Below are positions 709-12,153 of a stretch of DNA of 12,153 nt, in pieces. Position numbers and translations under genes: made by a program. Below the pieces are notes generated by a model, which worked only from the letters and a program-made list of their open reading frames with translations, was not told where the DNA came from and searched no databases. Source of the DNA: Okeania sp. (GTDB taxonomy: Bacteria > Cyanobacteriota > Cyanobacteriia > Cyanobacteriales > Microcoleaceae). The stretch is taken from contig NZ_JAYKGW010000066.1 of the NCBI RefSeq assembly GCF_035285525.1, positions 1 through 12,153 of the forward strand. Reading direction: 5' to 3'. Numbering within the stretch: the stretch's first letter is position 1; each line of letters begins with the position of its first letter.

Positions 709-773
709 CTATAAAGATAACTACAAAATAGCTAACAACTTAATCCGTATATCCGTGGCATAATCCGTGTGAG

Positions 774-2615
774 CTAAATTAAAGCAGCCATTTTCACATC
801 ATTAGTTGCCAACAACTCCTGTAACTCATCAGAATCTACAGTCTCCTTATCCACCAACATTTCCGCCAACTTATCCAAAACATGACGGTTGCCTTCCAAA
901 ACTTCCTTCGCCCGACGATAAGCTTGGTCTACCAAATTACGCACCTCATCGTCAATAGCAGCAGCAGTTTCCTCAGAAAAATCTCGCTCAGACATAATAT
1001 CCCTTCCTAAGAACATATTACCATTCTGACGACCAAGAGCCACAGGACCCAAGCGATCGCTCATGCCAAACCGAGTCACCATTTGACGAGCAACACGAGC
1101 CACCTGCTGTAAATCATTAGAAGCACCAGTAGTCACCTCTTCATCACCAAAAACAATTTCCTCAGCTAAACGACCACCCAAAGCAACCGCCATTTGATTT
1201 TGGAGATAAGCACGGGAATACAAACCAGAATCCATCCGGTCTTCACTAGGAGTAAACCAAGTTAAACCACCAGCACCCCCACGAGGAATAATACTAATTT
1301 TCTGTACTGGGTCATAATCAGGCATTAACGCTCCGACCAAAGCATGACCAGCTTCGTGATATGCTACTAATTCCTTACGCTTCTCACTCATTACTCGGTC
1401 TTTCTTCTCTGGACCAGCTAATACTCGGTCAATAGCATCATTAACTTCGTCCATAGAAATTTCTGTTAAGTTGCGACGAGCTGCTAAAATAGCAGATTCA
1501 TTTAATAGATTAGATAAATCTGCTCCAGTAAATCCAGGAGTCCGACGGGCAATTTTTTCTAAGTCCACATCTTTAGAAAGACTCTTACCACGAGCATGAA
1601 CGTTGAGAATTTCTAGACGGCCTGCATAGTCAGGGCGGTCTACTACTACTTGACGGTCAAAACGGCCAGGACGTAGGAGGGCAGCATCTAAAACATCTGG
1701 ACGGTTAGTTGCAGCTATAATAATGATACCTGTGTTGCCTTCAAAACCATCCATTTCGGTGAGTAACTGGTTAAGAGTTTGTTCTCTTTCGTCGTTACCA
1801 CCTCCTAAACCAGCGCCCCTTTGACGACCTACTGCATCTATTTCATCTATAAATACGATACAGGGAGCGTTAGATTTGGCTTGTTCAAATAGGTCTCGAA
1901 CCCTAGAAGCACCAACACCTACGAACATTTCGACAAATTCTGAACCGGAGATGGAGAAGAATGGTACTCCTGCTTCTCCAGCAACAGCTTTAGCTAATAA
2001 AGTTTTACCTGTTCCGGGTGGTCCGACTAATAGTACGCCTTTTGGTATTTTGGCTCCTACTGCTGTGAAGCGATCAGCGTTTTTCAGGAAGTCCACTACT
2101 TCGGTTAGTTCTAGTTTTGCTTGCTCGATTCCTGCTACGTCGCTAAAGGTGACTTGGGTTTGAGGTTCCATTTGGACTCTAGCTTTGGATTTGCCAAAGT
2201 TCATTGCTTGGCTACCTGGTCCACTTTGAGCACGACGTAGTAGGAAGAATAATCCTACTAATAATAGGACGGGGAAGAATAGGCTACTTAATGCTCTAAC
2301 CCAGAAACCTTCTTCGTTTTGGGGCAGTACGGAAATATCTACTCTGTTTTGAGTGAGGATGTTAATTAGATCTGGGTCATTGGGTAGATTGACTCGGAAG
2401 ATAGTTCCGTCTGCTGCTTTGACTCTAGCTACTGTCCGGTCAGCGCTTATACTTACTTTATCTACGTTTTTGTTTTCTATTTGTTGAATGAATTGACTGT
2501 ATTTCCAGGTTTCACGAGTTTGGGGTTGTTGATCGAAGAATGCTGTTGCTAGGGCGATGACTACTATTGCTAGTAGGGCGTATAGACCAGCGTTTCTCCA
2601 TTTTTTATTGTTCAC
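774..2615 (-). CDS. ftsH: ATP-dependent zinc metalloprotease FtsH (membrane AAA+ protease, cyanobacterial/chloroplast type)
   Basis: The 613-aa ORF has an N-terminal TM helix, a periplasmic/lumenal loop and a second TM helix. It carries Walker A GPPGTGKT, Walker B IVFIDEID, the [22 protein letters not shown] and the zinc site HEAGH. The start is GTG at 2615-2613, with AAGGAG 9 nt upstream. Confidence 0.97.
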
Positions 2616-2624
2616 TAGGGGTTG

Positions 2625-2630
2625 CTCCTT
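2625..2630 (-). promoter_or_regulatory. Shine-Dalgarno of ftsH
   Basis: Plus-strand ctcctt is AAGGAG on the minus strand, with a 9-nt spacer to the GTG start. Confidence 0.7.
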
Positions 2631-2733
2631 TTAATCTTTTATGGTAAAGGGACTATAGTTATTAATCCTTATATATTAACTTATGTTAACTTGCTTCTCA
2701 TTATGTTATCACAGTTTTAGCGCTAATTAAAAA

Positions 2734-2751
2734 TCAGGAGTCAGGAGTCAG
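2734..2751. repeat. STRR-like tandem heptamer (TCAGGAG x2.5)
   Basis: The sequence is tcaggagtcaggagtcag. Short tandem heptamers are characteristic of intergenic DNA in heterocystous cyanobacteria. Confidence 0.7.
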
Positions 2752-2921
2752 AATTTTCAAGGTTTTTAGCTCAAGTTAACTATTATAAAACTTATTACAT
2801 CAGGACTTACGCAGTAAGGCTATACCTAGTATGGGATAATGACCATTAAGCTCTACAGATGGTGTATGATTTTGTTATTTGTGTAAGTCTTGTACATCCT
2901 ATTTTGGATTGCTATATAAGT

Positions 2922-3170
2922 GAAGTCAAAAGTTAAAATTTAGAATCTTTACTTCGACTTCTATAACTCGTAATTGATAACTTTAGAGTTAACTTGATAG
3001 ATATCACAAATATTTGTAGTTTCAAATTTTAAATATGAAATAATTTCCCGAACTACTCTGTCATCTTTATAGAAGTGAAAGTCAAAAGTTAGAGTCTTTG
3101 CTTCGACTGCCATTTGAGAATTCAAAAGTTAAAAGTCAAAATGCAAAAGTTAGAATTTTGGCTTTGACTG
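2922..3170. repeat. Three dispersed copies of an AAAGTCA/AAAGTTA heptamer-derived repeat
   Basis: Copy 1 is 2922-2961 (gaagtcaaaagttaaaatttagaatctttacttcgacttc). Copy 2 is 3073-3110 (gaagtgaaagtcaaaagttagagtctttgcttcgactgc). Copy 3 is 3121-3170 (ttcaaaagttaaaagtcaaaatgcaaaagttagaattttggctttgactg). Each pairs an AGTCAAAAG-type arm with a CTTCGACT / CTTTGACT arm, giving an imperfect hairpin. Confidence 0.65.
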
Positions 3171-3176
3171 TTATTA

Positions 3177-3223
3177 CTGATAACTGAAAAAGCTGATAAT
3201 TGAAAAAGCTGAGAACTGAAATG
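3177..3223 (+). repeat. 16-nt tandem repeat x3 running into the ATG at 3221
   Basis: The units are ctgataactgaaaaag, ctgataattgaaaaag and ctgagaactgaaatg. They are rich in TGA/TAA in several frames. Confidence 0.75.
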
Positions 3224-3784
3224 AATAATTTGAATTATCTAGAAACTTCAGGATGGCTAAGGTCATTAAAAGAGGGAAAGTCAATAGATTATAATTATAG
3301 TCCTTTGCCTTGGTATTCTTATCCTGCCATTGAATTTATTGAGGATAAATTAAAGGGTGATTTTCGAGTATTTTAATATGGGAGCGGACAATCAACTTTA
3401 TGGTATGCTCGGAGAGTTAAAGAGGTAATTTCTGTAGAACATAACTCTGATTATTTTATGGGAGTTTCTACTTCTATTCCTAATAATGTCAAGCTGGTTT
3501 TGAAAGAAGATAGGCAAAAATATGTTGAGGAAATAAGTAATTATGATGATGGTTATTTTGATGTAATTATTATTGATGGAATTGAGAGAGTTAAATGTGC
3601 TGAAGTATGTGGAAATAACCTCTCTAAATCTGGCTGGATAGTTTTTGATAATTCTGATAGAGAGGAAAATAATATAGCAATACTTTTTTGGCAAAGTCAA
3701 GGGTTTAAACGGATAGATTTTTATGGTTTAGTTGCTTCTCAAAGATATAAAACTTGTACTTCAGTTTTTTTTTCAAAGAGATGA
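3221..3784 (+). pseudogene. Small class I SAM-dependent methyltransferase-like gene with one in-frame nonsense codon (TAA 3374-3376)
   Basis: One frame is continuous from ATG 3221 to TGA 3784 (188 codons) apart from TAA at codon 52. The stop falls inside the glycine-rich motif RVF*YGSGQSTLWYA, where E (GAA) is expected. The downstream sequence DVIIIDGIERVKC...IVFDNSD is typical of the fold. ORF-track entry 3458-3784 is only the tail of this frame. Confidence 0.6.
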
Positions 3785-3827
3785 TTTTTGATCTGATTTA
3801 AAATTCCCAAGTCAAAAAAGGTCTTGT

Positions 3828-4696
3828 TTGAGTATTTCTCTTGGTCAAGGTGAGGCAATAGCTAGAAGAAATAATCAAAATGAAGGTAGTAAAAATAATC
3901 AAGTTTTGGCTTGTTACGAAGCTATTAAAAGTCAACCTGATTCTGCTGAAGTTTACCAGAAATTAGGGGATGTTTATTACTCTCAAGGTGAAATTGAAAA
4001 GTCTATTCGTTCTTACCAGAAAGCTATAGAATTACAACCTGATTTGGCAATACTTTATGGAAAGTTAGGCAAGTTTTATTCCCAAAAAGGTTAACTATGA
4101 CAGGCGATCGCTTGCTTTAAAAAAGTTATTAATCTTGAACGAAATTCGCCAGATATATATTGGAGTATTAGTCAGATTTTACAGCAACAAGGTAAGTTAT
4201 CTGAGGCTGAGGTTTATCAGGAAAAAGCATTAGAAATTAAACCCGATATAATTACAAAATCTTATGCTTTGAATCAGCTTGATTTTAAACTTACTCGTTA
4301 CCTAGCTTGGGAAAATGGATTTTTTATTGAAGTTGGTGCAAATGATGGAATAAGTTAAAGCAACACTTTATATTTTGAGAAGTATAAAAACTGGCAAGGT
4401 ATTTTGATTGAAGCAATACCGGAGTTGGCGGAAAAATGTAGAGTTAATCGCTCTAAGGTGGAAAATTATGCTTTAGTTTCTTTTAATTATGGTCAGGATT
4501 ATATATAAAAATGCACTATTGTAATTTGATGTCTTTTGTTGATGGAGCGATGAATTCGGAGGAGGAAAAAAGATTTCATTTACAAAGGGGATGTCAGGTT
4601 CAAAATATTAGTAATAGTTATGAAATAAGTGTTCCAACAATGACGTTAACTGGGATTTTTGACAAGTATGGAGTTAAAAATATAGATTTGTTTTCG
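3828..4696 (+). pseudogene. TPR-repeat / FkbM-family methyltransferase fusion gene, 5' part (multiple lesions, truncated by IS insertion)
   Basis: There are three TPR-like units (AEVYQKLGDVYYSQGEIEKSIRSYQKAIELQP...). The FkbM motif GFFIEVGANDG follows. In-frame stops are TAA 4092-4094, TGA 4098-4100 and TAA 4356-4358 (GIS*SN). A +2 frameshift sits in the tatatata run at about 4500-4507. The frame then continues as ...GIFDKYGVKNIDLFS up to 4696. The start is uncertain (TTG 3828 in the track). Confidence 0.7.
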
Positions 4697-4860
4697 GTGA
4701 AGTTCTCTCCCGTTAAATCGAAGATTATAACGGGAGTTTCTAAAACAGAGATGATTGAATCCAAGTTTCAGAAGTTTCTTGCTTCACAGGCTGACTAATG
4801 TCTAAGCCTCCACAAGCAGACAAGATGATACCCACCTCGTTTAATGCTTTATTTAATATG
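4697..4860 (-). ncRNA. Predicted omega-RNA (reRNA) scaffold of TnpB; the 5' limit is a guess
   Basis: By analogy with characterised TnpB systems, the guide RNA scaffold overlaps the tnpB 3' end and the RE and ends at the element boundary. This stretch contains the RE hairpin (4707-4736). The guide would continue into the flank as 5'-CGAAAACAAATCTATATTTT (reverse complement of 4677-4696). Confidence 0.35.
4707..4736 (-). repeat. RE subterminal hairpin of the IS
   Basis: The plus-strand sequence is ctcccgtta-aatcgaagatta-taacgggag, a 9-bp stem with a 12-nt loop. Its foot lies 10 nt from the right-end boundary (4697). Confidence 0.8.
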
Positions 4861-6005
4861 TTAATTGCAGCGTTCTCGTCTCTATCTAAAACCGTTTTAC
4901 ACTTAGGGCAAGAATGAGTTCTAACTGACAAAGATTTAGGTACTTTTTGACCACAATTACTACAATTTTGTGACGTATTTTGAGGGTTGACTTTGATAAA
5001 ATGAACACCGCGTTTTACCGCTACTGCATTCAATTTTTCCAGAAAAGTCCCCCAGGCTACATCATAAATTGATTTTGATAATTTAGTATTTCTAGCTAAA
5101 CCTTTAATATTAAGTTCTTCTACAGCAATTAAATCATACTCTTTAACTAATTTATGAGCAGTTTTATAGTGGAAATTTTCTCTTTGTCTAGCAATATGTT
5201 GATGCAATCTAGCTATTTTATTTTGTGCTTTTTTCCAGTTATTAGAACCAATTTCTTTTCTAGCTGCTTTACTTTGTTTTCTAGCTAAATTAGATTGGGC
5301 TTTTCTATAGAAATTTGGCACAGAAACAGTTTCTCCAATATTAGTAGTTAAAAACTCTTTTAAGCCTACATCAATACCTATCGCAGTTTTCATATTATCT
5401 TTAGGAATTAGACTGGGAACTGACTTATCTTCCAAACTAAAACTGACATAATAGCCATCAGCTTTTTTGATTATAGTTGCAGTTTTCATAGTAAATCCAT
5501 CTGGAATTGGTCTATGAACTATTACTGGAATAGCACCAAATCTGCTAATAATAATTTGCTTACCATCAAATTTCACTGCTGCTTTAGGATGATTGACCCT
5601 ACTAAAGCTTAATGACCTTAGTTTGCCAGACTTTTTAAACCTTGGTCTACCAAATCTTTTACCTGTTTTGTCAGGAATTAACCAACGTTTCCAAGCTTTA
5701 TCTAGTCTTTGTAGATTAATTTGTTGAACTTCAGAGTAAATTTCTTTATACTCAGGAAATAATTGTTTTGTTTCTTTAAGTGCTGATTGCTGAAAATAAT
5801 AATCTGGTCTACAAGGAATCTTGCCAATAGGACATGAAATTGTTGAGCATCGGTCTATTTGACATCTAGTTCTATTTAACCAATCTAATCTTTGAGAAAG
5901 GGCATAATTCCAATGTCTCCTCAAAAGTTCTAACCAATTATCTATCTTAGTCTTAGCTATTTGTTTTGGATTTGGTTTGATTTTGTAACAATGGCTTATT
6001 ATCAT
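4740..6005 (-). CDS. tnpB: TnpB (IS605 OrfB-family RNA-guided endonuclease), apparently catalytically intact
   Basis: The protein is 421 aa. The N-terminus YKIKPNPKQ...RRHWNYAL is OrfB-like. RuvC-I is IGIDVGLK, RuvC-II is IAVEELN, the zinc ribbon is CSNCG...CPKCK and RuvC-III is DRDENAAINI. Confidence 0.93.
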   Translation of the reverse strand: MIISHCYKIKPNPKQIAKTKIDNWLELLRRHWNYALSQRLDWLNRTRCQIDRCSTISCPIGKIPCRPDYYFQQSALKETKQLFPEYKEIYSEVQQINLQRLDKAWKRWLIPDKTGKRFGRPRFKKSGKLRSLSFSRVNHPKAAVKFDGKQIIISRFGAIPVIVHRPIPDGFTMKTATIIKKADGYYVSFSLEDKSVPSLIPKDNMKTAIGIDVGLKEFLTTNIGETVSVPNFYRKAQSNLARKQSKAARKEIGSNNWKKAQNKIARLHQHIARQRENFHYKTAHKLVKEYDLIAVEELNIKGLARNTKLSKSIYDVAWGTFLEKLNAVAVKRGVHFIKVNPQNTSQNCSNCGQKVPKSLSVRTHSCPKCKTVLDRDENAAINILNKALNEVGIILSACGGLDISQPVKQETSETWIQSSLF

Positions 6006-6043
6006 TTCTTTGCTCTTTCGACCAGAACTATATTATAATAGTT

Positions 6044-6066
6044 TGTGTAGAATTTGTCTATACACA
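6044..6066. promoter_or_regulatory. Inverted repeat in the divergent tnpB / RHH intergenic region (candidate operator)
   Basis: TGTGTA-11 nt-TACACA ends 1 nt before the ATG at 6067 and lies 39 nt from the tnpB start. Confidence 0.25.
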
Positions 6067-6237
6067 ATGAAGAAAACAGGATTAAATATACGAATAAGTC
6101 AGAACAGATTAAATAAGCTGAGATTATATGCAGCAGAAAATGAAAAAACGATGACCCAAGTAATAAGTGATTTTATAGATTCACTGAGACTTAAAGACAA
6201 GAAATCAGAAGAAAAACATCAATCGACACCTATTTAA
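6067..6237 (+). CDS. Small ribbon-helix-helix (CopG/Arc/MetJ-like) DNA-binding protein carried inside the IS
   Basis: The 56-aa product is MKKTGLNIRISQNRLNKLRLYAAENEKTMTQVISDFIDSLRLKDKKSEEKHQSTPI. It shows a beta-strand (LNIRIS), helix 1 (NRLNKLRLYAAENEK), helix 2 (TMTQVISDFIDSL) and a basic tail. I prefer the internal ATG 6067 to the track start at 6010. Confidence 0.55.
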   Translation: MKKTGLNIRISQNRLNKLRLYAAENEKTMTQVISDFIDSLRLKDKKSEEKHQSTPI

Positions 6238-6257
6238 TTTGCAGCTCGGCAATTCCC

Positions 6258-6287
6258 ATCCCGTTAAATCGGAGATTATAACGGGAT
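6258..6287 (-). repeat. LE subterminal hairpin of the IS
   Basis: The plus-strand sequence is atcccgtta-aatcggagatta-taacgggat, a 9-bp stem. The 26-nt core matches the RE hairpin at 25 of 26 positions. The outermost base pair covaries (A-T here, C-G at RE). The foot lies 18 nt from the left-end boundary (6305). Confidence 0.8.
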
Positions 6288-6305
6288 ACCCCTTGCCGAA
6301 TCTAG

Positions 6306-6467
6306 TTGGATATTGAAGGTTTTGAATTAAATGTTTTGCAAGGTATTAATTTTGATAAATATCAACCAAAATTTATGTTGATAGAGGTACGTTATGGAGA
6401 TAGAAAAGCTATTGATTATTTTTTAAGACCTTTATTTCAATCTATTGCGGTGTTTTATAATAACTAA
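6306..6467 (+). pseudogene. FkbM-family methyltransferase, 3' fragment displaced by the IS
   Basis: The translation is LDIEGFELNVLQGINFDKYQPKFMLIEVRYGDRKAIDYFLRPLFQSIAVFYNN*, with the stop at TAA 6465-6467. This is the canonical C-terminal FkbM block. Confidence 0.75.
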
Positions 6468-6589
6468 TAACTGAATTTTAACCATTTTAGTTCAGACATA
6501 ATAACTGATAACTAATAACTGAACTTTAAGCCTTTTGGTTCAGCAATAAAAACTGATAACTAATAACTGAAAGTTAACTCATAACTCAA
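6456..6589 (+). repeat. 48-nt tandem repeat x~2.8 (STRR-like heptamers ATAACTG/ATAACTA plus a short hairpin) immediately upstream of the giant ORF
   Basis: taactaataactgaa occurs at 6461, 6509 and 6557, giving an exact 48-nt period. In the first two units it is followed by a ctgaa(t/c)...gttcag stem. Confidence 0.8.
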
Positions 6590-7450
6590 ATGACTCAATT
6601 TCAATTAACAACTCCTGTAGTTCTAATTATATTTAATCGACCAGATACAACAGAAAAAGTATTTCAGATAATTCGTCAAGTAAAACCTCCTCAATTATTT
6701 GCAATAGCTGATGCTCCTCGTATTAATAAATCAGGAGAATTTGAGAAATGTATGGCAGCAAGAAAGATAATTAATCAAGTTGATTGGAAGTGCGAAGTTT
6801 TAACTAATTATGCTGAGATAAACTTAACTGGTAAAAGAAGAATTCCTAGTGGCTTGAACTGGGTTTTTAGTATGGTTGAATCAGCAATTATATTAGAGGA
6901 TGACTGTTTACCACATCTGACTTTTTTTCAGTTTTGCCAAGAATTATTAGATAGATATCGTCATAATAAAAAAGTAATGGCGATATCTGGAGATAATTTT
7001 TTGTTTGGTCAAAAATATATAGAATCTAGTTATTATTTTTCTCATTATTTTCATGGTTGGGGTTGGGCAACTTGGCGACGAGCATGGCAAAATTTTGACG
7101 ATAAATTGACATTATGGCCTCAATTACGAGATAGTAATAGGTTAAATAATATTCTCTCAAATACTCAGGCAGTTAAATATTGGTCAAACATTTTTGCTAA
7201 GTGCTATGAAAATTATTTAGCTTGGGATTATGCTTGGTTATTTGCTGGTTGGAGTCGTAATAAATTAACAATTATTCCTCGGATAAATTTAGTTTCTAAT
7301 ATTGGTTTTAGCCCAACTGCTACTCATACTAAAGATGTGAATAGTAAGTTTGCTAATATGTCTGTGGAGGAAATGATTTTTCCAATGAATCATCCTGATT
7401 CTATTATTCGTAATATTCAAGCTGACAAATTTACAGAAAAAATCATGTTT
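6590..7450 (+). other. Module 1: GT-A-fold glycosyltransferase (GT2/GNT-I-like, 'HlpA-like')
   Basis: Motifs seen are PVVLIIFNRPDTTEKVFQIIRQVKPPQLFAIADAPR, the acidic motif AIILEDDC and WGWATWRRAW. Confidence 0.6.
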
Positions 7451-10400
7451 AGTGGTAGTTTAGAAGTTCAAAATATTCATTGTAAAGTTTGTGGTTCGGT
7501 ATCTTATAATTTTGATACTGCTAAAGTTTTGAATAAATATAATGTTGATTATTTTCAATGTTCTAATTGTGGGTTTATACAAACGGAAAATCCTTTTTGG
7601 TTAGATGAAGCTTATCAGCAGGCGATCGCTAGTAGTGATGTAGGTTTGGTGTCTAGAAATCAGAATTTTTCTTTGATTACGGAAAATTTGATTCTTAATT
7701 TTTTTGATGCTGATGATAAGTTTTTGGATTATGGTTGTGGATATGGTTTATTTGTCAGGATGATGCGGGATTTGGGATTGGATTTTTATGGATATGATAG
7801 GTATTGTGAAAATATTTTTTATGAAGGATGGGAAGGGGGAATAAATGGGGAGGAAAAATATGAGTTAGTGACTGCTTTTGAGGTGTTTGAACATTTTATA
7901 AATCCTCTGGTAGAGATTGAGAGGATATTGCAAAAAACGAGAAATATTTTGTTTAGTACGAAGTTATTGCCCTCGGATAATCCTGGTGTTAATGATTGGT
8001 GGTATTATGCTTTGGAGGAAGGTCAGCATATTTCTATTTTTACTAGAAAAGCTTTATCTTTTATTGCTCAAAAGTTTAAACTTAATTTATGTTCGGATGG
8101 AGAATCTCTACATCTATTAACTGAGAAAAGTTTATCAAGTTCTGAGTTTTTCAGCATATTTAGGGTGGGTAGATATAAGCCTGAGAAAAGGAAGGAATCT
8201 TTAACGAGATTAGACCATGAAAAGGTGACTGAAAGAAAATCGAAAACTCAGCAGCAGTTAACTGAGGTAGGTTATAAAAATATTACAGAAAGAAAATTGA
8301 AAACTCAGCAGGAAATAACTGAGCTAGGCTATGAAAAATTTACAGAAAGAAAAGGAAAACCTCGGCAGCAACTAACCGAATTAGACTATGAAAATATTGC
8401 AGAAAAGAAACTAAAAAATCAGCAGCAACTAACCGAATTAGACTATGAAAATATTCCTGAAATAAAAGGAAGAGCTAGGCAGGAAATAACTGAAGTAGAT
8501 TATGAAAATCTAGCAGAAAGAAAAGGAATATCTAGGCAGGAAATAACAGAGATAGACTATGAAAATATTGCAGAAAAGAAACTAAAAAATCAGCAGCAAC
8601 TAACCGAATTAGACTATGAAAATATTCCTGAAATAAAAGGAAGAGCTAGGCAGGAAATAACTGAGCTATACTATAAAAATTTTACAGAAAAGAAACTAAA
8701 AAATCAGCAGCAATTAGATTTCAAGGTTCTGATTGATGGTGTATTTTTCCAAATCAATAATACGGGTATTGCTCGTGTCTGGAAGTCTTTGTTGGAAGTA
8801 TGGTCAAAAGATAGTTTTGGGAAAAATATTTTAGTGCTTGACAGATTAAAAACTGCCCCGAAAATTCCTGGCATAAACTATCGTGTTATCCCTGGATATA
8901 ACTACGGTAAAATCAATGAAGACCGTCAAATGTTACAACAAATATGTGATGAAGAAAATGCCGATATTTTTATTTCTACTTATTACACAACACCTATTTC
9001 AACGCCATATATATTTATGGCTTATGATATGATTCCAGAAGTTTTAGCTAAAAGTCTTGATAACCCTTCATGGCAAGAAAAACATCGTGGTATTAAACAG
9101 GCAATTTCTTATATTTCAATTTCTGAAAATACGACTCGCGATTTAGTAAAATATTTCCCTCAAATATCTGGAAATTCTATTAAGGTTGCTCATTGTGGAA
9201 TTGAATCTAAGTTTTCTAGAGCGACTCCTCAAGAAGTTGCTAATTTTAAACAAAAATATCAGATTAATTATCCATACTTTCTGATAGTTGGTGAGAGAAT
9301 AGGTTGGCTTGGTTATAAGAATACTATTTTATTTTTTCAAGCTTTTTATAAATTGGTAAATTCTTCAGAATTTGAGATTGTTTGTATTGGGGGAAGTAAA
9401 AAATTAGAGCCACAGTTAAGCAAATATATTTCTGGTAGTAAAATTCATTTATTGCAAGTAAGTGATGAAGAATTAAAGTCGGCTTATTCAGGAGCGATCG
9501 CTTTAATTTATCCTTCTAAGTATGAGGGTTTTGGATTGCCTATTTTGGAAGGAATGGCTTGTGGTTGTCCGGTTATTACTTGTAAAAATTCTTCGATTCC
9601 TGAAGTGGGAGGAAATGCAGTTTTATATATAGATGATAATGATGTTAATGGGTTAGTAAATGCTTTGGGTGAGGTGCAAAAACCTGAAGTTCGGCAAAGG
9701 TTGATTGCTGTTGGTTTAGCACAAGCTAAAAAGTTTTCTTGGTCGCGAATGGCTAAGATTATGACTGATGTATTTATTCAGACTTTTAATCAAATTAAAG
9801 AAAAGGAATTATCTGCTATTCAAAATAGTAAAAATTCAGATGAAATTACTTTTCAGATAAATCAAGGGCAGTTAAAAATGCAGGTTAAAGAAAAGGAATT
9901 ATCTGCTCTGGAAGATAGGAAAAATTCAGATAAAATTCCTTTTCCAATAAATCAAGAGCAGTTAGAAATGCAGGTTGAAGAAAAGGAATTGTTTGCTATT
10001 CAAGATAATAAAAATTCAGAAGAAATTCCTTTTCAGATAAATCAAGAGCAGTTAAAAATGCAGGTTGAAGAAAAGGAATTATCTGCTGCGGAATATAGGA
10101 AAAATTCAGATGAAATTATATTTCAAATAAATAAAGAATTATCTGCTGTGGAAGATAGGAAAAATTCAGATGAAATTCCTTTTCCAATAAATCAAGAGCA
10201 GTTAAAAATGCAGGTTGAAGAAAAAGAATTATCTGCTGTGGAAGATAGGAAAAATTTAGATGAAACTCGGTTGAAAATAAATCACGGACAGTTAGAAATG
10301 CAGCGTCATTTTGGGAATGTTAATTCTCTAGATGAAGCTATGTTTAAACGAGTAATTACTAAGAATAAAATTGACAATATGTCTCCTCAAGAACTAATGG

Positions 10401-12153
10401 TAGCTTGGGAAGATTCAGTCTTAGATTATACTCAAAAAATTCTTTTAGAAATTCCCGTAAAGCCAAAATGGAAAGTATTAGAAATTGGCTGCGGATTTGG
10501 TTGCTTCATCAAAAAATTCCGAGAAAAATTTGCACGGGTAGATGGTGTAGATATTTCGGAAAATATGATTAATTTTGCTAAACAATATTTGGCTGATGGA
10601 AAACAAAATGGAGAAGTTTATATTAATAATGGCTATGATTTACAACAATTTCCTGACCAAAATTATGACTTTGTTTATGCAACAATTGTATTTCAAAATA
10701 TTCGTTCTATTTCTATAGTCAAAAGTTATTTAAGAGAAACATTTAGAGTGTTAAAACCAGGAGGATATTTCCGACTTCAGGTACAGGATCCTAGCACTCC
10801 AGATTTAGAAAATTTTGATGAGGAAGATGCAAAAGATAAACAATATTATTTTTCTGGGAATGCTTATACTGAGGAACAATTAAAAGATTTATTAATGGGA
10901 GCAGGGTTTAATTTAGTTTCTTTAAAATCTGCTAAACCTTCGATTTGGGCAACGGTAAGGCGAGAAGAAAAAGTAGAAGTAGCTGTAGAACATTTTCCTC
11001 GAATAACTACTCTTAAAAATAATCAAATGAGTATTGAATATCCAGAAATTTCTCCATTGTCAGATAATAATCATCGACCTTTTTGGTCTGTGGTTATTCC
11101 TACTTATAAAAAGGTGAAATATTTAGAACAAACTTTGAAAAGTGTTTTGGAACAAGCTCCTTCTCCAGAGGAAATGCAAATAGAAGTAATTAATGATTGT
11201 CCTGATAATAAAATCCAAAATGAAATAGCAGCTATTGTCCGAAAGGTAGGGGGAGAAAGGGTTAATTTTTATCGGCATTTTCCTCAAGATATTGGTCAAG
11301 CTCCGATTTTTAATGTTTGTCTTCAAAGAGCAAGAGGATATTGGATTCATTTACTCCATGATGATGATTTTGTTTTGCCTGGTTTTTATGAAAAGTTACG
11401 TCGGGGAATAGAAAATAAAACAACTTTAGGAGCAGCATTTTGTCGCCACTATTATATAGATGAAAATGATAATAAAAAGTTTTTGTCTGTGTTGGAAAGA
11501 GACACTCCTGGAGTTATAGAAAAATTTTTAGAAAAGATTACTGTAGAGCAACGTATTCAAGTTGTGGGAATGGTGGTTAAACGTGAAGTTTATGAACAAT
11601 TAGGTGGTTTTTGTGACCAAGCTGTTTCTGCTGCTGACTGGGAAATTTGGAAGCGAATAGCTACTTTTTATCCTATTTGGTTTGAACCGGAAATTTTGGC
11701 TTGTTTCCGTTTACATTCTATTTCGGAAACTTCCCGTTTAATGCAGTCTGGAGGTAATATAGAAAATGCTAGGAAAGCTATAGAAATTACTGAAACTTAT
11801 TTACCAAAAAATATGGCTGAAAATTTATCGAATCAAGCTAGGGAACATTATGCTCTTGAAGCTATGAAAATGGCTGCTTCTATGTTGAAAGGAGGTAATA
11901 CTAATGGAGCGATCGCTCAGATTAGGGAGGGTCTTAGATGTAGTAAGTCTCTTACGGTAATTAATTTATTGGTTTCTATTTTAATTAATGCTGAAACAGA
12001 GGTTGAATCTTCTTTGAGTCAGACAAAAAGTCAGTCTGAAGTATCTTTAAAATCTCAGTCATTAGATTCTAATAAATCTGGAGATATTGATATTGAATCT
12101 TCTTTGAGTCAGACAAAAAGTCAGCCAGAAGTATCTTTAAAATCTCAGTCATT
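6590..12153 (+). CDS. Giant multidomain glycosyltransferase/methyltransferase (GT-A + MTase + GT4 + MTase + GT2 with three repeat regions); 3' end lies beyond the window
   Basis: My manual translation from ATG 6590 (in-frame TAA at 6575-6577 upstream) gives 1854 sense codons and no stop through 12153. The frame was checked at independent motifs: GYG 7727, EGFGLP 9524, EIGCGFG 10481 and VVIPTY 11090 all sit in the phase of 6590. This ORF is not in the supplied track. Confidence 0.9.
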   Translation, partial: MTQFQLTTPVVLIIFNRPDTTEKVFQIIRQVKPPQLFAIADAPRINKSGEFEKCMAARKIINQVDWKCEVLTNYAEINLTGKRRIPSGLNWVFSMVESAIILEDDCLPHLTFFQFCQELLDRYRHNKKVMAISGDNFLFGQKYIESSYYFSHYFHGWGWATWRRAWQNFDDKLTLWPQLRDSNRLNNILSNTQAVKYWSNIFAKCYENYLAWDYAWLFAGWSRNKLTIIPRINLVSNIGFSPTATHTKDVNSKFANMSVEEMIFPMNHPDSIIRNIQADKFTEKIMFSGSLEVQNIHCKVCGSVSYNFDTAKVLNKYNVDYFQCSNCGFIQTENPFWLDEAYQQAIASSDVGLVSRNQNFSLITENLILNFFDADDKFLDYGCGYGLFVRMMRDLGLDFYGYDRYCENIFYEGWEGGINGEEKYELVTAFEVFEHFINPLVEIERILQKTRNILFSTKLLPSDNPGVNDWWYYALEEGQHISIFTRKALSFIAQKFKLNLCSDGESLHLLTEKSLSSSEFFSIFRVGRYKPEKRKESLTRLDHEKVTERKSKTQQQLTEVGYKNITERKLKTQQEITELGYEKFTERKGKPRQQLTELDYENIAEKKLKNQQQLTELDYENIPEIKGRARQEITEVDYENLAERKGISRQEITEIDYENIAEKKLKNQQQLTELDYENIPEIKGRARQEITELYYKNFTEKKLKNQQQLDFKVLIDGVFFQINNTGIARVWKSLLEVWSKDSFGKNILVLDRLKTAPKIPGINYRVIPGYNYGKINEDRQMLQQICDEENADIFISTYYTTPISTPYIFMAYDMIPEVLAKSLDNPSWQEKHRGIKQAISYISISENTTRDLVKYFPQISGNSIKVAHCGIESKFSRATPQEVANFKQKYQINYPYFLIVGERIGWLGYKNTILFFQAFYKLVNSSEFEIVCIGGSKKLEPQLSKYISGSKIHLLQVSDEELKSAYSGAIALIYPSKYEGFGLPILEGMACGCPVITCKNSSIPEVGGNAVLYIDDNDVNGLVNALGEVQKPEVRQRLIAVGLAQAKKFSWSRMAKIMTDVFIQTFNQIKEKELSAIQNSKNSDEITFQINQGQLKMQVKEKELSALEDRKNSDKIPFPINQEQLEMQVEEKELFAIQDNKNSEEIPFQINQEQLKMQVEEKELSAAEYRKNSDEIIFQINKELSAVEDRKNSDEIPFPINQEQLKMQVEEKELSAVEDRKNLDETRLKINHGQLEMQRHFGNVNSLDEAMFKRVITKNKIDNMSPQELMVAWEDSVLDYTQKILLEIPVKPKWKVLEIGCGFGCFIKKFREKFARVDGVDISENMINFAKQYLADGKQNGEVYINNGYDLQQFPDQNYDFVYATIVFQNIRSISIVKSYLRETFRVLKPGGYFRLQVQDPSTPDLENFDEEDAKDKQYYFSGNAYTEEQLKDLLMGAGFNLVSLKSAKPSIWATVRREEKVEVAVEHFPRITTLKNNQMSIEYPEISPLSDNNHRPFWSVVIPTYKKVKYLEQTLKSVLEQAPSPEEMQIEVINDCPDNKIQNEIAAIVRKVGGERVNFYRHFPQDIGQAPIFNVCLQRARGYWIHLLHDDDFVLPGFYEKLRRGIENKTTLGAAFCRHYYIDENDNKKFLSVLERDTPGVIEKFLEKITVEQRIQVVGMVVKREVYEQLGGFCDQAVSAADWEIWKRIATFYPIWFEPEILACFRLHSISETSRLMQSGGNIENARKAIEITETYLPKNMAENLSNQAREHYALEAMKMAASMLKGGNTNGAIAQIREGLRCSKSLTVINLLVSILINAETEVESSLSQTKSQSEVSLKSQSLDSNKSGDIDIESSLSQTKSQPEVSLKSQS
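7457..8200 (+). other. Module 2: zinc-ribbon plus class I SAM-dependent methyltransferase
   Basis: The zinc ribbon is CKVCGS...CSNCG. Motif I is FLDYGCGYGLF, followed by LVTAFEVFEHF. Confidence 0.7.
8210..8722 (+). repeat. Repeat region R1: 57-nt (19-aa) in-frame tandem repeat x9
   Basis: Units begin at 8210, 8267, 8324, 8381, 8438, 8495, 8552, 8609 and 8666. The consensus is LDYENIAEKKLKNQQQLTE, alternating with LDYENIPEIKGRARQEITE. The 112-nt stretch 8382-8493 is identical to 8553-8664, which indicates a 171-nt higher-order duplication. Confidence 0.95.
8723..9793 (+). other. Module 3: GT-B-fold glycosyltransferase (CAZy GT4 / Pfam Glycos_transf_1 type)
   Basis: Motifs seen are KVLIDGVFFQINNTGIARVW and IALIYPSKYEGFGLPILEGMACGCPVITCKNSSIPEVGG. 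Confidence 0.85.
9797..10306 (+). repeat. Repeat region R2: 90-nt (30-aa) in-frame tandem repeat, 6 units with one 30-nt in-frame deletion
   Basis: Units begin at 9797, 9887, 9977, 10067, 10133 and 10217. The consensus is EEKELSAVEDRKNSDEIPFPINQEQLKMQV. Units 4 and 5 are 66 and 84 nt, so 10 codons are missing across their junction. Confidence 0.95.
10307..10985 (+). other. Module 4: class I SAM-dependent methyltransferase (Methyltransf_11/25-like)
   Basis: Motif I is KVLEIGCGFG, post-I is VDGVDIS, and RVLKPGGYFRLQ is also present. Confidence 0.8.
11075..11810 (+). other. Module 5: GT2-family (GT-A) glycosyltransferase
   Basis: Motifs seen are RPFWSVVIPTYKKVKYLEQTLKSVLEQ, EVINDCPDN and WIHLLHDDDF (DxD). 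A helical tail follows, including GNTNGAIAQIREGL. Confidence 0.85.
12002..12153 (+). repeat. Repeat region R3: 90-nt (30-aa) Ser-rich in-frame tandem repeat, at least 1.7 units, cut by the window end
   Basis: 12003-12063 matches 12093-12153 at 59 of 61 positions. The unit is (V/I)ESSLSQTKSQ(S/P)EVSLKSQSLDSNKSGDID. Confidence 0.85.

Follow-up and report, generated by a model that had tools for sequence, protein, structure and literature searches.

The 12,153-bp contig NZ_JAYKGW010000066.1 of Okeania sp. (assembly GCF_035285525.1), built from short reads and analyzed here over its entire length (the window), carries a giant open reading frame (ORF) for a multimodule enzyme in which a methyltransferase and a glycosyltransferase are separated by a tandem array of 19-residue units, termed R1. 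What does such an array do between two catalytic modules? A first-pass annotation of the window had proposed a helical rod that could set the distance between active sites, in which case repeat number would tune the glycan product, as the coiled coils of WbdD and WbbB do. Our analysis led to a different answer, namely, that R1 is probably a lineage-specific, in-frame amplification of the flexible linker between methyltransferase 1 (MT1) and the GT4 module of a Tery_3753-type glycan-synthesis enzyme, an amplification that is tolerated and drifts in length.

R1 is an in-frame array with a recombining interior

The predicted protein is composed, in this order, of a GT-A-like N-terminal domain, MT1, R1, the GT4 module, a second linker array (R2), methyltransferase 2 (MT2), a GT2 module, and a third array (R3). 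R1 lies between the Pfam matches to Methyltransf_23 and to Glycos_transf_1 and Glyco_trans_1_4, the latter placed at aa 894-1030. As the first-pass annotation had described, it consists of nine consecutive 57-nt units in the frame that starts at ATG 6590 (Table 1), and no competing ORF covers it on either strand. Tandem Repeats Finder (TRF) called a period of 57 with 8.9 copies and a score of 415, and periods of 114 and 171 as well. The units follow the consensus [LVI]-D-Y-E-N-[IVLF]-x-E-x-K-x-K-x-x-Q-x-[LIV]-T-E and come in two flavors (...AEKKLKNQQQLTE and ...PEIKGRARQEITE). Proline, previously counted in two units, occurs in three (units 3, 5, and 8), while glycine is found in five of the nine, with six residues in total, and five of the nine likewise contain Gly or Pro.

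The two tracts in units 4-5 and 7-8 that had been reported as identical were indeed so over exactly 112 nt, with no further matching base on either side, and an identity of this length cannot have arisen by chance in 12 kb. Outside the tract, the units share 58 to 82% DNA identity (10 to 24 differences per 57 nt). At the 171-nt offset, identity fell abruptly at the tract edges, unit 3 being 75% identical to unit 6 and unit 6 being 58% identical to unit 9. A fresh tandem duplication would be expected to be identical across all 171 nt; thus, the recent three-unit duplication put forward in the annotation is not what the array displays. A simple 171-nt tandem duplication and a single unequal crossover were both discarded as origins of the tract, given that its flanks are dissimilar at this offset, and a single unequal crossover from any plausible ancestor did not reproduce unit 6. 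Gene conversion or intra-array exchange, with units 4-5 copied onto units 7-8 or the reverse, appears to fit these sequences better. The suggestion that the array is recombinationally active stands.

Table 1. Coordinates of R1 and of the other features of the giant ORF in the window
Feature	Position	Strand	Description
R1, linker from MT1 to GT4	8210..8722	+	nine in-frame 57-nt (19-aa) units, aa 541-711
112-nt identical tract, copy 1	8382..8493	+	units 4-5
112-nt identical tract, copy 2	8553..8664	+	units 7-8; offset 171 nt from copy 1
R2, linker from GT4 to MT2	9779..10306	+	about 5.7 units of 30 aa (90 nt), one shortened to 20 aa; TRF period 90
R3, 3' of the GT2 module	12000..12153	+	at least two 30-aa (90-nt) units; contig ends inside the array
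Giant multimodule ORF	6590..12153	+	1,854 aa, 3' end cut by the contig end; based on translation and Pfam
MT1 core, Methyltransf_23	7691..8086	+	aa 368-499; Pfam E = 5e-38; AlphaFold2 pLDDT mostly 62-89
GT4 module, retaining GT-B glycosyltransferase	8723..9778	+	aa 712-1063; Pfam Glycos_transf_1, Glyco_trans_1_4

R1 is a native linker that varies in copy number

Linkers were delimited by the conserved MT1 end and the GT4 start and compared in 60 homologues, eight genome loci, and cluster members. As summarized in Table 2, orthologues do not share a fixed number of diverged R1 units; the number is 1, 2, 5, or 9 in different species, and two more arrays have at least about 8 and at least about 14 units. 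For Dapis sp. BLCC M172 and a sediment "Trichodesmium" metagenome-assembled genome (MAG), the counts are lower bounds, because contigs end within R1 from both sides and the partial arrays do not overlap. In the sediment MAG, unit 1 is identical to unit 6, which suggests a five-unit higher-order repeat or an assembly loop. Of the variation anticipated in the annotation, that between species was evident, while variation within a cluster of 90% identity was seen for R2 only, in which Okeania sequences of a single cluster carry one or three units (three in P0121).

Table 2. Numbers of R1 and R2 units in the window and its relatives
Genome or sequences	R1 units	R2 units	Remark
Trichodesmium, including IMS101 and MAG_R02	1	1	R1 linker KTLTQLDHEKVTEKKKKNQQQLDL, 24 aa
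Okeania SIO3B5	1	1	
Okeania SIO3C4, P0006, P0008	1	1	SIO3C4 partial, R2 outside its sequence
Five Okeania sequences, including O. hirsuta	2	1	R1 sequence identical in all
Okeania P0121	2	3	
Dapis sp. BLCC M126	5	3	
Window contig	9	about 5.7	
Dapis sp. BLCC M172	about 8 or more		contigs break inside R1; R2 not recovered
Sediment "Trichodesmium" MAG	about 14 or more	2	contigs break inside R1

The DNA flanking R1 is 84 to 93% identical among orthologues that differ in R1 number, and 88 to 93% identical to the window within the sub-clade that carries long arrays (the window contig, two Dapis strains, and the sediment MAG). Distant homologues possess an unrepeated linker of 19 to 38 aa with the motif L-x-E-x-D-[YF]-x-x-[AV]-[VI], the Asp of which is nearly invariant in an alignment of 44 sequences. 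Since this motif is conserved in distant single-copy homologues, the native linker would therefore hold some conserved role, for example, in docking or helix capping. In the window, the motif is located at 8198-8240, at the MT1-GT4 junction, and is reiterated in each R1 unit.

Orthology across genomes is recognizable for the first unit (LDHEKVTERK...) and for the last (...KNQQQLDF), and unit 3 (LGYEK...) is common to the window and Dapis M126. Old edges with turnover of the interior are the typical pattern of recombining arrays, and R1, judged from these alignments, is the native linker amplified where it stood, ancient at both ends and recombining in between. Searched on its own against proteins, R1 gave no match at E <= 1e-3, probably owing to the composition filter, and a search with R1 plus its flanks added one single-copy Okeania sequence as well as partial sequences that were already known.

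R1 is predicted to be a flexible tether

The rod proposed for R1 was examined by structure prediction, using an AlphaFold2 monomer model of aa 330-1460 that was built from an alignment of 26 orthologues. While the catalytic domains were modeled with confidence, R1 was not, its predicted local distance difference test (pLDDT) scores being 56 to 72 in the first two units and 25 to 50 beyond unit 2. R1 was 70% helical in the model, and the helices were interrupted at Gly/Pro-containing units; moreover, units 5 and 8, which have the same sequence, were modeled differently, one as coil and the other as helix. In the single-copy orthologue from Trichodesmium, the linker formed one 16-residue helix (pLDDT, 53 to 63) between domains with a pLDDT of 85 to 98.

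Analysis of composition gave a similar picture. R1 showed neither heptad nor hendecad periodicity, with a hydrophobicity power of 3.7 at period 3.5 and 2.5 at period 3.67, and its power peaks (115 to 140) fell at harmonics of 19. Charged residues account for 39% of the segment, opposite-charge i/i+4 pairs number 8.8 per 100 residues versus 11.1 for same-charge pairs, and a mean hydropathy of 0.345, lower than the 0.42 of the Uversky boundary, places the segment in the disordered region of the charge-hydropathy plot. Neither Pfam nor NCBIfam had a family matching R1 or R2. With broken helices of low confidence, no heptad repeat, and no charge pattern of a single alpha-helix (SAH), the segment came out essentially as disordered, with no rod-like structure. 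These predictions favor a helix-prone flexible tether over a coiled coil, an SAH, or a folded repeat, and R1 has the attributes of a flexible linker in being polar, low in hydropathy and in model confidence, variable in length, and flanked by autonomous folded domains.

Two further linkers of the enzyme are amplified

R2 came out in the AlphaFold2 model much as R1 did (pLDDT, 27 to 48), and in most orthologues it comprises one unit, with two in the sediment MAG and three in Dapis M126 and Okeania P0121. In R3, exact repeats with a period of 90 start at 12003/12093 and 12038/12128, and the unit reads ESSLSQTKSQ(S/P)EVSLKSQS...; every orthologue examined has one copy of the corresponding segment. 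R1 and R2 vary without coupling, as the sediment MAG combines a long R1 with an R2 of two units and Okeania P0121 combines an R1 of two units with an R2 of three. The two linkers are equal or nearly so in length in two genomes (176 and 176 aa in the window and 100 and 96 aa in Dapis M126). An antiparallel, length-matched helical stalk formed by R1 and R2 and holding out GT4 was also considered, and it is ruled out by the sediment MAG and Okeania P0121.

A probable course of amplification, tolerance, and drift

Together, these data are consistent with the following course of events. In the ancestral state, retained by Trichodesmium, several Okeania, and distant homologues, the MT1 and GT4 modules would have been joined by one segment of 19 to 38 aa, consisting of a short, low-confidence helix with the L-x-E-x-D-[YF] motif and then polar coil. 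In one marine sub-clade (the four long-array members named above), this 57-nt segment would then have been multiplied to 5 to 14 or more copies, likely by slippage or unequal recombination. The edges of the array would have stayed old and orthologous while its interior was turned over and homogenized by gene conversion, the 112-nt identical tract representing the most recent conversion event. The product would be a polar, helix-prone tether of ~170 aa that is presumably flexible in vivo, and the same amplification would have acted independently on R2 and R3 in genomes rich in tandem repeats. A passive tether between autonomous modules tolerates insertion of whole units, the frame always being kept, and changes in R1 length would for this reason be nearly neutral and accumulate by drift.

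Rates of substitution bear on this proposal. Between the window and Dapis M126, the ratio of nonsynonymous to synonymous substitutions (dN/dS) was 0.17 to 0.35 for the catalytic modules, and the corresponding ratio of polymorphisms (pN/pS) among R1 unit paralogues was 0.59 to 0.87, indicating relaxed constraint. Conservation of E8, K10, and Q15, which are invariant among units, was dropped as proof of selection at the protein level, because the codons are invariant, too; this invariance reflects common descent or homogenization as much as protein constraint.

Several intergenic tandem arrays were identified in the window by TRF. One lies at 3122-3221, between ftsH and a TPR pseudogene, and contains 2.8 copies of the 16-nt unit CTGATAACTGAAAAAG plus sub-repeats of 7 to 8 nt. 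Another is a 48-nt repeat (2.5 copies) at 6460-6578, directly 5' to the ATG of the giant ORF, made of ATAACTG/TAATAAC heptamers and a small hairpin (CTGAAyTTTAAsCCwTTTkrGTTCAG). At the equivalent place, the Dapis M126 locus carries a different 48-nt repeat in two copies (9448-9542 of that locus). The same locus further contains, at 2738-3484, 2127-2524, and 4884-5501, a 150-nt array of 5.0 copies with 98% identity in tachylectin-like genes and several intergenic arrays of 76 to 77 nt, a sign that long-period tandem amplification is a tendency of the whole Dapis M126 genome. The genome of Trichodesmium is known to be rich in repeats and insertion sequences (PMC4143802).

Several observations weigh against passive drift. 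Each of the four sub-clade members keeps a long array, with 5 units in Dapis M126, 9 in the window, at least about 8 in Dapis M172, and at least about 14 in the sediment MAG, and some of the array predates their divergence, at a dS of about 0.3 to 0.7; such retention is compatible with mild selection for length as well as with tolerance. Positionally orthologous units gave a dN/dS of 0.25, no higher than that of the domains, although this value is derived from 57 codons only. The expansion of three linkers within a single protein, in the same genomes, could reflect selection for wider spacing of the modules. Finally, R1 is predicted to be about 70% helical, and the AlphaFold2 model is that of a monomer, so that an oligomeric helical assembly would escape detection.

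Alternative explanations

These observations could be accommodated if the array were itself selected as a tunable spacer. A longer, semiflexible tether would alter how the active sites of MT1 and GT4 share the growing glycan, and repeat number would adjust the methylation pattern or product length between lineages without any rigid ruler, R2 and R3 acting likewise on the remaining modules. The order of methyltransferase (MT), spacer, and glycosyltransferase (GT) is that of characterized terminator-ruler-polymerase proteins (PMC11231755), and the retention of long arrays, the expansion of three linkers, and the helicity of R1 in the model would be readily explained. Nevertheless, most relatives work with one unit, the unit sequences are under relaxed constraint, and these genomes amplify tandem repeats everywhere, intergenic DNA included. 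In addition, R1 and R2 change independently of each other, R2 even within a cluster of 90% identity. Likewise, the closest solved relative of GT4 by sequence belongs to the methylmannose polysaccharide (MMP) pathway, where methylation is not a chain stop. We thus consider a selected spacer possible but rather unlikely and favor a tolerated tether.

We also asked how far the array depends on the assembly. Logan contig SRR19514071_354348, an independent assembly of public run SRR19514071, is 100% identical to window positions 746-8394 and stops at 8394, exactly where the first 31-mer recurs within R1; SRR19514071 is thus a run that contains the organism, and R1 limits its assembly. The reads support the R1 repeat, and the number nine rests on one assembly path, since 9+3n units would fit a k-mer graph of k below 112, too. 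It could accordingly be argued that the array exists but that its count and the position of the identical tract result from an assembler walking a looped k-mer graph, the true array having 9+3n units or being a mix of strain variants. The halt of the Logan contig, the 3' end of the window contig inside R3, the breaks of two related genome assemblies within R1, and the left sediment-MAG contig, in which units 1 and 6 are identical in the way expected of a graph loop, are all in line with this. However, every junction (3-4, 5-6, 6-7, and 8-9) is distinct, the order of nine units is the minimal path, and the tract would be resolved by assemblers in which the maximum k exceeds 112; furthermore, complete arrays of two and five units in isolate genomes argue that the phenomenon is biological. 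An artifactual count is therefore improbable.

A bolder proposal is that the 19-, 30-, and 30-aa arrays at three successive junctions are evolvable "length dials" of one assembly-line glycan enzyme, and we give it little credence. If it were true, a one-step recombination would reposition methyltransferase and glycosyltransferase active sites and alter the chain length or methylation of a cell-surface glycan. This would contribute to glycan differences between closely related marine cyanobacteria, and the arrays would be a non-coiled-coil spacer functionally analogous to WbdD and WbbB.

Least credible of all is a ruler of the WbdD/WbbB type, in which R1, as a coiled coil or SAH, would be a rigid rod holding a chain-terminating methyltransferase at a set distance from a polymerizing glycosyltransferase, with repeat number determining polysaccharide chain length: the domain order and the high helix propensity of R1 recall such proteins, but periodicity at 3.5 or 3.67, an SAH charge pattern, and unbroken helices are all missing from a segment with Gly or Pro in most of its units, the searches described below gave no support, and the ancestral and commonest state is a single linker of 19 to 38 aa, too short to measure, so that orthologues with the 24-aa linker have no ruler at all.

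Comparison with known rulers, stalks, and linkers

In characterized rulers, the terminating module resides at the far end of a coiled coil and the polymerase at its near end, and the systems are coupled to Wzm/Wzt export; examples from ABC-transporter-dependent O-antigen assembly are WbdD of Escherichia coli O9a and Klebsiella pneumoniae O3, WbbB of K. pneumoniae O12, and ORF6 of K. pneumoniae O7 (PMC11231755; PMC3482155). Like WbdD and WbbB, the giant enzyme has a noncatalytic segment separating methyltransferase-type from glycosyltransferase modules in one large cytoplasmic protein, and the spacing of its active sites could, in principle, be set by R1 length; the MT-spacer-GT order of MT1-R1-GT4 resembles that of O7 ORF6 and O12 WbbB in particular (PMC11231755). 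In contrast, WbdD and WbbB contain heptad-based oligomeric coiled coils of a length defined for each serotype, whereas R1 has no heptads, contains Gly/Pro breaks, is modeled with very low confidence, ranges from 1 to about 14 or more units among orthologues, and originated from a linker of 24 aa of which most relatives have one copy. Homology to WbdD, WbbB, or ORF6-O7 was detected neither in PDB sequence searches of three segments nor among the Foldseek top 50. Within the ranges searched, namely, the window and the 28-kb syntenic Dapis locus, wzm and wzt were not found; the Dapis locus has an isolated 213-aa ABC ATPase about 7 kb downstream and no Wzm/Wzt pair. With no homology, no coiled coil, and no export genes in these ranges, the analogy drawn in the first-pass annotation is not supported.

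Periscope proteins and other variable-length stalks of bacterial surfaces (PMC8201768; bioRxiv 10.1101/2020.12.24.424174) share with R1 the in-frame tandem repeats, stretches of identical DNA, and a copy number that differs between relatives and thereby changes protein length. Their repeats, however, are folded domains of ~70 to 110 aa that form rods in secreted, wall-anchored proteins, whereas R1 units are 19 aa long, predicted to be flexible, and located between catalytic modules. Apart from the one 112-nt tract, the DNA of R1 units is only 58 to 82% identical, and with units of this size, no Pfam family, and a pLDDT largely below 50, R1 is not a folded-domain rod of the Periscope kind.

Repetitive flexible linkers are familiar from other proteins, including the Ala/Pro-rich linkers of 2-oxo-acid dehydrogenase E2, the Pro/Thr linkers of cellulases, and the (EP)n/(KP)n segment of TonB. 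They are low-complexity, polar tethers of variable length that tolerate insertion and deletion of repeat units. R1 resembles them as a polar, length-variable tether between autonomous modules but differs in having a 19-aa unit with an inherited helix-forming motif in place of a Pro-rich motif of 2 to 4 residues, and the giant enzyme differs in that three distinct linkers are amplified, with units of 19, 30, and 30 aa. ER/K-type SAH domains, for their part, are characterized by dense i to i+4 pairing of Glu with Lys/Arg and by more than about 60% E/K/R. R1 is likewise charged, rich in Q, E, and K, and helix-prone, but its charge content is well under this level and its same-charge i/i+4 pairs exceed the opposite-charge ones.

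The giant enzyme, its relatives, and its neighborhood

The start codon assigned to the giant ORF agrees with the N termini of its orthologues, MTQF(K/Q)LT. The ORF is the orthologue of Tery_3753 (2,490 aa) of Trichodesmium erythraeum IMS101, which falls in a 90% cluster of Trichodesmium spp. proteins together with P0004. Orthologues are 70 to 79% identical, and the nearest matches are giant proteins annotated as "methyltransferase domain-containing" in marine filamentous cyanobacteria, including Dapis sp. BLCC M126 (70% identity across the full length), Okeania hirsuta, and Trichodesmium spp. Full-length orthologues run on into a helical region and a GT41/SPINDLY-like domain. Pfam and NCBIfam contain no specific family for the giant protein as a whole, a literature search for Tery_3753 gave no result, and a JGI metagenome scan found no relatives.

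The N-terminal 330 aa bear a weak resemblance to GT-A/GNT-I-like domains, and Pfam placed MT2 (Methyltransf_11/25/12) at aa 1296-1394 and the GT2 domain at aa 1500-1634. With the GT-A-like domain directly at the N terminus and only nucleotide-sugar- and S-adenosylmethionine-dependent modules, the enzyme is presumably cytoplasmic. PDB sequence matches of GT4 were the MMP mannosyltransferase and GlgM, the former, from mycobacteria, being its best solved sequence relative; the model of an orthologous GT4 gave fold matches to MshA, GlgM, and WaaG, and the Foldseek top 50 were generic GT-B enzymes. By analogy with this relative, MT1 may methylate residues instead of terminating chains.

The neighbors of the giant ORF in the window are FtsH, a TnpB insertion, and a TPR-FkbM pseudogene, and the upstream order of FtsH followed by a TPR-FkbM methyltransferase gene is shared with Dapis. 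In Dapis M126, this methyltransferase gene is intact (353 aa); in the window, it is a plus-strand pseudogene (3858-4741 and 6305-6455) that has a frameshift near 4502 and internal stops and is split by a 1.6-kb insertion (4697-6304). The insertion carries a TnpB/IS605 OrfB gene on the minus strand (4740-6005), a 56-aa RHH-like ORF (6067-6237), and a subterminal hairpin with 21-nt arms (6246-6299). An Rfam scan of the window gave no match.

Implications

R1 is a further example of an already known kind of feature, and its interest is modest. Its wider importance would arise only if linker length altered the glycan product, which would extend the ruler concept beyond coiled coils, and nothing found here supports this. 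In practice, such arrays break short-read assemblies and can pass for structural rulers. If R1 is indeed a tolerated tether, these cyanobacteria would provide a clean natural series in which one linker unit is present 1, 2, 5, 9, and 14 or more times and which is paralleled at two further junctions, and would illustrate how, in repeat-rich genomes, linkers grow by tandem amplification in giant multimodule enzymes.

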